From: Escherichia coli
GTDB lineage: Bacteria; Pseudomonadota; Gammaproteobacteria; Enterobacterales; Enterobacteriaceae
NCBI RefSeq assembly: GCF_045037415.1
Contig: NZ_CP173438.1
Length of the DNA: 64,000 nucleotides
Strand: one strand, 5' to 3'
A program made the translations under genes and the position numbers. Shown piece after piece: positions 3,160 to 62,206 of the stretch. The notes beneath the pieces were generated by a model, which saw only the letters and a list, made by a program, of their open reading frames with translations, did not search any database and had not been told where the DNA came from. Within the stretch, counting starts at the first letter, position 1. The number at the start of each line of letters is the position of its first letter.

Positions 3160-3519
3160 TTACAGACCTTTATGCGCCAGCATTGGTCCCAGCGGACGGC
3201 CACCCAACAAGTGCATATGGATGTGGTAAACCTCTTGTCCGCCATGGCGGTTGGTGTTCATGATCAGACGATAGCCATCTTCGGCAATACCTTCTTGCTC
3301 AGCAATTTTTGCCGCTACGGTGATCATGCGTCCCAGCGCCTGCTCATGCTCAGCTGACACGTCGTTCACAGTCGGAATGAGGATATTCGGAATGATCAGA
3401 ATATGCGTTGGCGCTTGCGGCGAAATATCGCGAAACGCCGTTACCAGATCATCCTGGTAGACGATATCGGAGGGGATCTCACGACGAATAATTTTGCTGA
3501 ATATAGTTTCTTCTGCCAC
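3160..3519 (-). CDS. hinT: HIT-family purine nucleoside phosphoramidase
   Basis: ORF contains HIT motif HIHMHLLGG; ORF track begins at a TTG at 3535-3537; I place the start at GTG 3517-3519 ([16 protein letters not shown], 119 aa). Confidence 0.85.
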
Positions 3520-3730
3520 GACATTTTCCTTTTTCAAATAGCCATGCGTTGCGCCATGCTACGCCGCGCCACACTGCGAGTATAGAGTATGGTCGAGTTA
3601 AACCTGCTCTTTCAACCTTAACTCACGATTTCTTAAGCAAAAAACCGTTTTGCTGCCGTATATATCGCCATTATTCCCATTTCTGCCTGCGAATGCGCTG
3701 AAAAGACATTTTCTGTTTGGTTTACACACC

Positions 3731-3770
3731 AAATATGAATGCGTATATTTCTCATTTGCATTTACATACA
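3731..3770 (+). promoter_or_regulatory. candidate Fur operator / promoter region of fhuE
   Basis: AT-rich segment ...atgaatgcgtatatttctcatttgcatttac... about 90-120 bp upstream of the fhuE ATG; partial match to the GATAATGATAATCATTATC iron box; fhuE is a known Fur-repressed gene. Confidence 0.4.
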
Positions 3771-3852
3771 AAATTATTCGCACACTAAATATAACCGCTC
3801 ATCACCCTGCTCCGGCATGAGCCTGACGCCAACATAAACCAAGAGATTTCAA

Positions 3853-6042
3853 ATGCTTTCGACACAATTTAACAGGGATAATCAACATCAAGCCATCATC
3901 AAACCGTCACTCCTTGCCGGTTGCATAGCACTGGCACTATTACCTTCCGCCGCTTTTGCTGCACCAGCCACTGAAGAAACGGTGATTGTTGAGGGTTCAG
4001 CCACAGCCCCAGATGATGGCGAAAATGATTACAACGTAACGTCTACCTCTGCGGGTACAAAAATGCAGATGACTCAACGTGATATTCCTCAGTCGGTCAC
4101 TATTGTTAGCCAGCAGCGGATGGAAGATCAGCAGTTACAAACGCTGGGCGAAGTGATGGAAAACACGCTGGGGATCAGCAAAAGTCAGGCGGATTCCGAT
4201 CGTGCTCTTTATTATTCCCGCGGATTCCAGATCGATAACTATATGGTTGATGGTATCCCCACCTATTTTGAATCGCGCTGGAATCTGGGCGACGCACTTT
4301 CTGATATGGCACTGTTTGAACGCGTAGAAGTAGTGCGTGGCGCGACAGGCCTCATGACCGGGACGGGTAATCCATCTGCGGCAATTAATATGGTTCGAAA
4401 ACACGCGACCAGTCGTGAATTTAAAGGCGATGTCTCGGCGGAATACGGTAGCTGGAACAAAGAACGGTATGTGGCGGATTTACAAAGCCCACTCACCGAA
4501 GACGGTAAAATCCGCGCACGAATTGTCGGCGGCTACCAGAATAACGACTCATGGCTGGACCGCTACAACAGTGAAAAGACCTTCTTCTCCGGCATTGTCG
4601 ATGCTGATTTAGGCGATCTTACGATGCTTTCAGCCGGTTACGAATATCAGCGTATTGATGTTAATAGCCCAACCTGGGGCGGTTTACCGCGCTGGAATAC
4701 TGATGGCAGCAGCAACAGTTACGATCGCGCACGCAGTACCGCACCTGACTGGGCGTACAACGATAAAGAGATCAACAAGGTCTTTATGACCCTGAAGCAG
4801 CGGTTTGCTGATACCTGGCAAGCGACGCTGAATGCCACCCACTCTGAAGTCGAATTTGACAGCAAAATGATGTATGTCGATGCCTATGTAAACAAAGCGG
4901 ATGGTATGCTGGTTGGGCCATACAGTAATTATGGCCCTGGTTTTGATTATGTCGGAGGCACCGGTTGGAACAGCGGCAAACGTAAAGTTGATGCGCTGGA
5001 TCTGTTCGCTGACGGTAGTTATGAATTGTTTGGTCGTCAGCACAATTTAATGTTTGGTGGCAGTTACAGCAAACAAAACAATCGTTACTTCAGTTCATGG
5101 GCCAACATTTTCCCGGATGAAATTGGCAGTTTCTACAACTTTAATGGCAATTTCCCACAAACCGACAGGTCACCACAGAGTCTGGCGCAGGACGATACCA
5201 CACATATGAAATCGTTATATGCTGCCACTCGTGTCACCCTTGCCGATCCGCTGCATCTGATCCTCGGCGCACGTTATACCAAGTGGCGGGTTGATACGCT
5301 GACTTACAGCATGGAGAAAAACCACACCACGCCTTATGCTGGACTGGTGTTTGACATCAATGATAACTGGTCGACCTACGCCAGCTATACCTCTATTTTT
5401 CAGCCGCAAAATGATCGTGACAGTTCAGGCAAATATCTGGCACCAATCACCGGTAACAACTACGAGCTGGGTCTGAAATCGGACTGGATGAATAGCCGTC
5501 TGACCACCACGTTAGCCATCTTCCGTATTGAGCAGGATAATGTCGCTCAGTCCACCGGTACACCTATCCCCGGCAGCAACGGCGAAACCGCCTATAAAGC
5601 GGTGGATGGGACAGTCAGTAAAGGTGTGGAATTTGAACTCAACGGCGCAATTACCGACAACTGGCAGCTGACGTTTGGCGCAACGCGCTATATTGCAGAG
5701 GATAACGAAGGAAACGCCGTTAATCCTAATCTGCCACGCACCACGGTTAAAATGTTCACCAGCTATCGGTTGCCTGTCATGCCAGAGTTGACGGTCGGCG
5801 GTGGTGTTAACTGGCAAAATCGCGTGTATACCGACACCGTGACACCGTATGGCACCTTCCGCGCCGAGCAAGGTAGCTACGCGCTGGTGGATCTCTTCAC
5901 CCGCTACCAGGTGACGAAAAACTTCTCGTTACAGGGGAACGTCAATAACCTGTTCGACAAAACCTACGATACCAACGTGGAAGGTTCTATTGTCTACGGC
6001 GCACCGCGTAATTTAAGCATTACCGGCACGTATCAATTCTGA
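3853..6042 (+). CDS. fhuE: TonB-dependent outer-membrane receptor for ferric coprogen / rhodotorulic acid
   Basis: 729 aa ORF with signal peptide, TonB box-like N-terminus and C-terminal aromatic residue (…TGTYQF) typical of TonB-dependent receptors. Confidence 0.95.
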   Translation: MLSTQFNRDNQHQAIIKPSLLAGCIALALLPSAAFAAPATEETVIVEGSATAPDDGENDYNVTSTSAGTKMQMTQRDIPQSVTIVSQQRMEDQQLQTLGEVMENTLGISKSQADSDRALYYSRGFQIDNYMVDGIPTYFESRWNLGDALSDMALFERVEVVRGATGLMTGTGNPSAAINMVRKHATSREFKGDVSAEYGSWNKERYVADLQSPLTEDGKIRARIVGGYQNNDSWLDRYNSEKTFFSGIVDADLGDLTMLSAGYEYQRIDVNSPTWGGLPRWNTDGSSNSYDRARSTAPDWAYNDKEINKVFMTLKQRFADTWQATLNATHSEVEFDSKMMYVDAYVNKADGMLVGPYSNYGPGFDYVGGTGWNSGKRKVDALDLFADGSYELFGRQHNLMFGGSYSKQNNRYFSSWANIFPDEIGSFYNFNGNFPQTDRSPQSLAQDDTTHMKSLYAATRVTLADPLHLILGARYTKWRVDTLTYSMEKNHTTPYAGLVFDINDNWSTYASYTSIFQPQNDRDSSGKYLAPITGNNYELGLKSDWMNSRLTTTLAIFRIEQDNVAQSTGTPIPGSNGETAYKAVDGTVSKGVEFELNGAITDNWQLTFGATRYIAEDNEGNAVNPNLPRTTVKMFTSYRLPVMPELTVGGGVNWQNRVYTDTVTPYGTFRAEQGSYALVDLFTRYQVTKNFSLQGNVNNLFDKTYDTNVEGSIVYGAPRNLSITGTYQF

Positions 6043-46095: not shown

Positions 46096-46355
46096 TTTTC
46101 CGCACTGACATAAACTGACAAATATTTAATCTCCCTTTCATTTAGCGTGAAAAATTGAATGAGATTCTTCCTGCCTCTACAGCACTCACTAGACCTTCCA
46201 GATGCTTAACCCACTAAACTTATGAAGATTCTTTCATTATTAATTCAAAATTATTGAAATAAAAATAAATATCATTCAATTTGTTATTTTTGTGTTGCAA
46301 TTCATTCTCCGACACGCCATTTTCTTTCTCTCGCAAATTCGTTTTGGATGTACTT

Positions 46356-61454: not shown

Positions 61455-62206
61455 GTTGTCACCCTGGACCTGGTCGTACATTTAAGAAATTAAATCATTT
61501 CAACTTGGTTGTTAACGCAACCCGTATTTTGTTAACGCTGCGTTACGATGGAAAGTATGTCTGCGGAAATATTTTTAATAACTCACCCGCGCGTTGTATT
61601 TTTCTTTTTTTGTTCATACCAAAGTATTAAAACCCACGTAAATACGCTGTTATCTACGCAAAAAATATTTTGTTTTCTTTTAAATCTCCGTTTTCCGCTA
61701 TCAAAAATCACCAGACAGTCATTCTTCTTGCCCGTCGCTGATTGCTGCGATATGTCTTGCGCACAAGCCGTGACAAACCTCGTCTTTTTGCAGTAAAAAA
61801 TTGTCCACGGTGGTATGGAGAAAAAACAAGAACGTTTTACATGACGAAAGGACTACAGCGAAATATTTTTTATATGCATTATTAGTAAGTTAGCACCATT
61901 TGTATGATTTTTTAAAATTGTGCAATAAAAACCAAATGTACAACTTTTCTATCATTTCTAAACTTAATAAAACCTTAAGATTAACATTTTAATATAACGA
62001 GTTACATTTAGTTACATGTTTAACACTTGATTTAAGATTTGTAATGGCTAGATTGAAATCAGATGTAATCCATTAGTTTTATATTTTACCCATTTAGGGC
62101 TGATTTATTACTACACACAGCAGTGCAACATCTGTCAGTACTTCTGGTGCTTCTATTTTAGAGGCAGCTGTCAGGTGTGCGAACAATAAAAAAGCGGGGT
62201 TTCATC
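61455..62206. promoter_or_regulatory. csgBAC / csgDEFG divergent intergenic regulatory region
   Basis: 752 bp strongly AT-rich non-coding gap between divergent csgB and csgD; in E. coli it is known to hold the csgB and csgD promoters, many regulator binding sites and the long csgD 5' UTR. Confidence 0.85.

Follow-up and report, generated by a model that had tools for sequence, protein, structure and literature searches.

Genomic context of the fhuE upstream region

The window analysed here, a stretch of 64,000 nucleotides, is part of the Escherichia coli chromosome; its segment 3100-4300 has matches of 95-100% identity in 5,425 of 5,426 complete E. coli genomes, where the annotated features are fhuE, hinT, and ycfL. 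The coding sequence of fhuE, the regulated gene, which specifies a siderophore receptor, was found in the list of open reading frames at 3853-6042 on the plus strand and encodes 729 amino acids; it corresponds to b1102 of strain MG1655, agrees with RefSeq at 100% identity and is named fhuE by RefSeq in 5,425 of the 5,426 complete genomes. The hinT gene lies on the minus strand and is divergent from fhuE, the two genes being separated by an intergenic region of 315 bp (3538-3852).

A preliminary description of this DNA had pointed to an AT-rich segment upstream of fhuE, within 3731-3770, as a candidate Fur box. Fur is a repressor that senses iron. Such a segment is present at 3735-3765, where the sequence atgaatgcgtatatttctcatttgcatttac is located 88-118 bp upstream of the fhuE ATG. 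The fhuE spacer of the window aligns to that of MG1655 without gaps and with nine scattered differences (3646, 3711, 3727-3729, 3767, 3795, 3810, and 3830), and 3730-3766 is identical in the two strains. Since the alignment is gapless, coordinates can be converted linearly from the fhuE ATG (NC_000913.3 1161551).

Predicted promoter and leader

A consensus promoter scan revealed a single plus-strand promoter with 10 of 12 matches and a spacer of 17 nt, a predicted sigma-70 promoter of fhuE composed of the -35 hexamer TTTACA (3721-3726) and the -10 hexamer TATATT (3744-3749). Transcription would start near 3756; literature searches for an experimental transcription start or promoter study of fhuE gave nothing useful. 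The leader of approximately 96 nt was considered as the seat of an RNA element and this was rejected, as it has no match in Rfam and folds like shuffled sequences (z = 0.08).

A direct repeat, TTTACACACCAAAT and TTTACATACAAAAT, is found at 3721-3734 and 3761-3774, 40 bp apart, such that a -35-like hexamer is duplicated just 3' of the segment described below. A second promoter starting from the repeated TTTACA (3761-3766) was discarded, as no -10 hexamer at an acceptable spacing was seen by eye and the scan returned one plus-strand promoter.

Fur motif searches

Compared with the classic 19-bp iron box GATAATGATAATCATTATC, the segment agrees at no more than 11 of 19 positions, a value reached at both 3735-3753 and 3741-3759. 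The match had been called imperfect in the preliminary description, which is correct: 308 window positions score 11/19 or better, so that the resemblance to the classic consensus is at chance level. The classic 19-bp consensus is a historical description and not a requirement for a Fur box; the Fur sites of tonB and exbB match it as poorly as the fhuE segment does.

A Fur weight matrix was trained on the promoter regions of 15 further operons of MG1655 under Fur control (fhuA, fepA-fes, fepD-entS, fepB-entC, fiu, tonB, sufA, cirA, nrdH, exbB, nfeF, feoA, ryhB, sodA, and fhuF), with fec and yncE left out and fhuE not used in training. With the matrix in the classic register, the maximum in the fhuE spacer is 6.0 bits, a score that ranks 50th in the window, compared to 11.9-23.4 bits for the training sites; the best four matches of the spacer all lie in 3731-3765 and three of them are in 6-bp phase. 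When the matrix was re-centred on the 7-1-7 unit of a single dimer (44 training sites), two overlapping matches were detected: site A, AATGCGTATATTTCTCATT, corresponding to one dimer at 3738-3756 with its centre at 3747 (11.65 bits, rank 4 of 63,982 window positions), and site B, TATATTTCTCATTTGCATT, at 3744-3762 with its centre at 3753, 6 bp from site A (12.08 bits, rank 2 of 63,982). A further weak site in 6-bp phase with A and B is centred at 3741. Both sites include the predicted -10 hexamer and span the likely start, so that the Fur sites overlap the predicted core promoter; the part of the site B region outside the -10 hexamer, 3750-3762, reads TCTCATTTGCATT. The fhuE scores fall in the lower quarter of the single-dimer training range (7.9-23.3 bits, median 15.9), and the best of them would rank second-lowest among the top sites of the 16 promoters. 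The matrix scan that had been put forward as a check of the interval thus has an outcome that depends on the matrix: it is positive in the single-dimer register, with two phased matches of about 12 bits, and below threshold with the classic 19-bp register, be it matrix or consensus.

When the 315-bp intergenic region was shuffled 20,000 times with its dinucleotides preserved, the fhuE single-site score was reached in 4.2% of the shuffles and an equally good pair in 6-bp phase arose in 0.23%. Sequence statistics by themselves are therefore suggestive of a Fur site, giving it moderate and not conclusive support. In a rival reading, the segment would serve as core promoter only, its likeness to a Fur box having arisen by chance and Fur acting on fhuE indirectly or via another site; this agrees with the chance-level consensus match, with the position of TATATT in the middle of the block and with the single-site shuffle probability of about 0.04; the in vivo binding data and the extent of conservation given below speak against it.

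Just downstream, at 3768-3782, the sequence ACAAAATTATTCGCA has 10 of 13 matches to the Fur consensus of Gao 2023, but its matrix score is only 5-6.6 bits. Being conserved within Escherichia only and not covered by the ChIP-exo footprint, it may represent a weak accessory site.

Elsewhere in the window, the top match to the Fur matrix is AATAAAAATAAATATCATT at 46258-46276 (20.25 bits), 80-98 bp upstream of yceJ in the yceJ-yceI operon. In E. coli W, KO11, and further strains, Fur ChIP-exo peaks have been reported for yceJ/yceI under iron-replete conditions, while the MG1655 data of the same study contain no such peak and both genes barely respond to fur deletion (Gao 2023). In the very AT-rich csgB-csgD intergenic region, a match of 11.84 bits at 61862-61880 is accompanied by a phased neighbour of 8.0 bits; this is likely to be a compositional false positive, as no ChIP-exo peak is listed there for MG1655 (Gao 2023).

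Published Fur binding and expression data

A Fur site of 12.4 bits has been predicted by information theory for fhuE at U00096.2 coordinate 1160880 (Chen 2007). U00096.2 and NC_000913.3 numbering differ by +777 in the fhuE part of the chromosome, a shift supported by the ChIP-exo peaks of fiu, fepD-entS, and entC, which then coincide with clusters of matrix matches. Following this conversion the predicted coordinate falls on 3747 of the window, the exact centre of site A, and the published 12.4 bits agree with the scores obtained here; by the same conversion logic, the exbB coordinate of Chen 2007 (3150076 + 1978 = 3152054) is exactly the centre of the exbB matrix match.

Regarding binding in vivo, Fur ChIP-exo of MG1655 yielded an intergenic peak assigned to fhuE, P31, at 1160863-1160895 (U00096.2 numbering), which is found under iron-replete conditions only and is marked as present in the earlier dataset of Seo et al. 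as well (Gao 2023). Converted to the window, this footprint covers 3732-3764, which is the union of three 19-mers in 6-bp phase starting at 3732, 3738, and 3744, the extent that would be expected if the helix were wrapped by two or three dimers of Fur. In strain W3110, peak P41 of the same study, given explicitly in NC_007779.1 numbering as 1163221-1163233 and likewise restricted to iron-replete conditions, falls on 3748-3760 of the window when converted from the W3110 fhuE ATG at 1163128. In the ChIP-exo file covering nine strains, fhuE occurs eight times (Gao 2023). ChIP-exo in two K-12 strains thus places Fur on exactly the bases in question, and only when iron is replete, which is difficult to reconcile with a segment that acts solely as core promoter.

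The only other nearby peak, P32 of the MG1655 data, corresponds to 3429-3462 within the hinT coding sequence and was assigned to hinT. It is present under iron-replete as well as iron-starved conditions, no Fur-matrix match above 4 bits was detected in or near 3429-3462, and hinT expression is unchanged in the fur deletion; this peak is probably non-specific, and an iron-independent peak lacking a motif offers a poor alternative site from which Fur could act on fhuE. In the MG1655 sheet of supplementary file 3 of Gao 2023, gene labels seem to slip by one row after P36, so that for instance acnA is the label given to 1309033-1309056, a peak at the tonB promoter; the coordinates in this part of the sheet are usable and the labels are not.

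Expression of fhuE depends on Fur. The log2 fold changes of fhuE in fur deletion mutants relative to wild type are 5.02, 6.15, 6.14, 3.89, 5.61, 5.29, 8.38, and 3.02 in eight strains by RNA-seq (Gao 2023), equivalent to an 8- to 330-fold derepression. [quoted passage not shown] Neither an in vitro Fur footprint nor a gel shift on fhuE DNA was found in the literature searched, and the oligonucleotides gel-shifted by Chen 2007 did not include that of fhuE.

Conservation of the element across Enterobacterales

Scanning one genome per species identified 54 fhuE loci from genera of the Enterobacterales that include Escherichia, Citrobacter, Kluyvera, Klebsiella, Raoultella, Enterobacter, Leclercia, Lelliottia, Buttiauxella, Mangrovibacter, Pantoea, and Rahnella, with FhuE identities from 97% down to 55%. 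The same element is present in every one of the 51 loci that were scanned, roughly 80-170 bp upstream of the start codon, and in 49 of the 51 it is among the two best matrix matches. When 52 distinct upstream regions from approximately 20 genera are aligned, there are two blocks in which the same base is present in at least 90% of the sequences, 3721-3726 (the -35 hexamer, 6 of 6 positions) and 3738-3762 (22 of 25 positions, including all six of the -10 hexamer); outside these blocks this level is reached only at two single positions, 3715 and 3732. Between the blocks the spacer differs in sequence from locus to locus and in length by 1 nt in either direction, so that the -35 and -10 hexamers are 16-18 nt apart, and the region downstream of 3763 is not alignable. 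This two-block pattern is the textbook phylogenetic footprint of a promoter and an operator.

Part of the 3738-3762 block is needed for the -10 hexamer in any case, and its conservation is therefore not purely evidence for Fur. Relative to the -10 hexamer, the block nevertheless reaches 6 bp further on the upstream side and 13 bp further on the downstream side, which exceeds what a promoter needs, and together with the iron-dependent occupancy of these bases this makes it very unlikely that the segment is a core promoter and nothing else. The decisive support for a Fur site at fhuE comes from the published ChIP-exo data and this cross-genus conservation.

The same pattern bears on another idea, in which the block would belong to a small protein-coding gene or to an RNA element and would not be a protein-binding site. 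A minus-strand open reading frame of 61 codons (3598-3783) does overlap the block, and one RefSeq genome has a hypothetical protein annotated in the spacer. Conservation limited to two short blocks with a spacer of variable length between them and unalignable flanks led to the rejection of this small open reading frame, and the lack of an Rfam match and the shuffle-like folding of the leader, noted above, offer nothing for an RNA; this explanation as a whole can be given hardly any credence.

In the group of Citrobacter, Enterobacter, and Leclercia a G replaces the T at 3752, and the matrix scores fall to 8.9 and 7.2 bits. Several Citrobacter loci (L023, L025, L026, L028, L029, and L065) have an extra Fur-like site, AATATTAATAATTATCAAG, of 14.9 bits, close to the ribosome-binding region and with its centre 19 bp upstream of the start codon of fhuE. 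This extra site may compensate for the main operator, which is weaker in these species owing to the change from T to G at the equivalent of 3752.

A partly conserved inverted repeat at 3698-3715 precedes the -35 hexamer by approximately 10-25 bp. Its sequence is GAAAA-GACA-TTTTC in E. coli; in Citrobacter, Enterobacter, Leclercia, and Buttiauxella (L021-L030 and L044-L057) it is TGAAACAnnATTTCA. The repeat could be a candidate site for another regulator.

This repeat may enter into a further explanation, a composite operator in which Fur and a second factor, or a special constraint of the promoter, read the same 25 bp, perhaps together with the inverted repeat upstream of the -35 hexamer. Such an arrangement would account for the near-invariance across genera of the non-consensus bases GCG (3741-3743) and TTTGC (3756-3760), for the high conservation of the block even where FhuE identity is down to 55%, and for a site that stays weak and shows no drift around the Fur consensus. 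Against this, variants of the AATGCAAAT type recur in the Fur sites of fepA-fes, cirA, tonB, and exbB, so that the non-consensus bases are perhaps tolerated variants; one paper lists fhuE among the regulons under the control of Fur only, and no second motif was identified. The strict conservation of the non-consensus bases is partly explained by the embedded -10 hexamer and partly by the recurring AATGCAAAT-type hexamers, and nothing found here requires a second reader of the fhuE operator DNA. A composite operator is considered unlikely.

Proposed regulation of fhuE

Taken together, the segment 3732-3764, with its core at 3738-3762, is very probably the Fur operator of the fhuE promoter. Under iron-sufficient conditions, Fe2+-Fur dimers would occupy the two overlapping sites centred 6 bp apart at 3747 and 3753, and possibly the weak third site centred at 3741 as well; dimers in these positions would cover both the -10 hexamer and the presumed start at about 3756, and RNA polymerase would thereby be blocked. 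When iron is scarce, Fur would leave the DNA and the sigma-70 promoter (TTTACA, 17 nt, TATATT) would transcribe fhuE with its unstructured leader. The motif matches, the occupancy restricted to iron-replete cells, the Fur-dependent expression and the cross-genus conservation are direct observations, made here or in published data mapped here, while we infer where exactly transcription starts, how many dimers bind and that repression works by occlusion.

The Fur box that had been suggested in the fhuE promoter is hence borne out by the pair of matrix matches, the Chen 2007 coordinate, the ChIP-exo peaks, and the derepression in fur deletions along with the lacZ fusion. It is an already known, documented site and not a new one, and its importance beyond annotation is small; reading of the sequence alone had placed a real regulatory site within a few bases. 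Of more general use is that the classic 19-bp consensus overlooks weak Fur operators such as those of fhuE and tonB, which a single-dimer matrix combined with 6-bp phasing finds, and that the limits of the operator (3738-3762) come out as sharp from cross-genus footprinting as from ChIP-exo.

Comparison with known Fur-regulated systems

The documented Fur site of fhuE in E. coli K-12 (Chen 2007; P31 of Gao 2023) is the same locus as that described here, its coordinates translating to 3747 and 3732-3764 of the window. Nothing of substance differs between the two; the window derives from another E. coli strain, and the nearby substitutions are confined to the flanks (3727-3729 and 3767).

The closest analogue in style is the operator of the tonB promoter, which is likewise weak and non-canonical and contains the same variant hexamers. 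The 11-mer ATTTGCATTTA of fhuE site B is shared with the tonB promoter, where it adjoins the best Fur-matrix match of tonB, and ATATGA(A/T)TGC is also common to both operators. The tonB operator has matches of 15.4 and 12.2 bits at 6-bp phasing and an iron-replete ChIP-exo peak, P37. It differs from that of fhuE in that the latter contains approximately 10 extra bp (GTATATTTCT, bearing the -10 hexamer) between the shared parts, and in the type of gene controlled, an outer-membrane receptor gene in the case of fhuE and the energy transducer in the case of tonB.

The strong, canonical Fur boxes of entC-fepB, sodA, fhuF, and ryhB resemble fhuE in having overlapping sites in 6-bp phase over the core promoter and in being bound under iron-replete conditions; these boxes, however, score 21-23 bits and are close to the 19-bp consensus, whereas the fhuE operator scores about 12 bits and matches the consensus at 11 of 19 positions.
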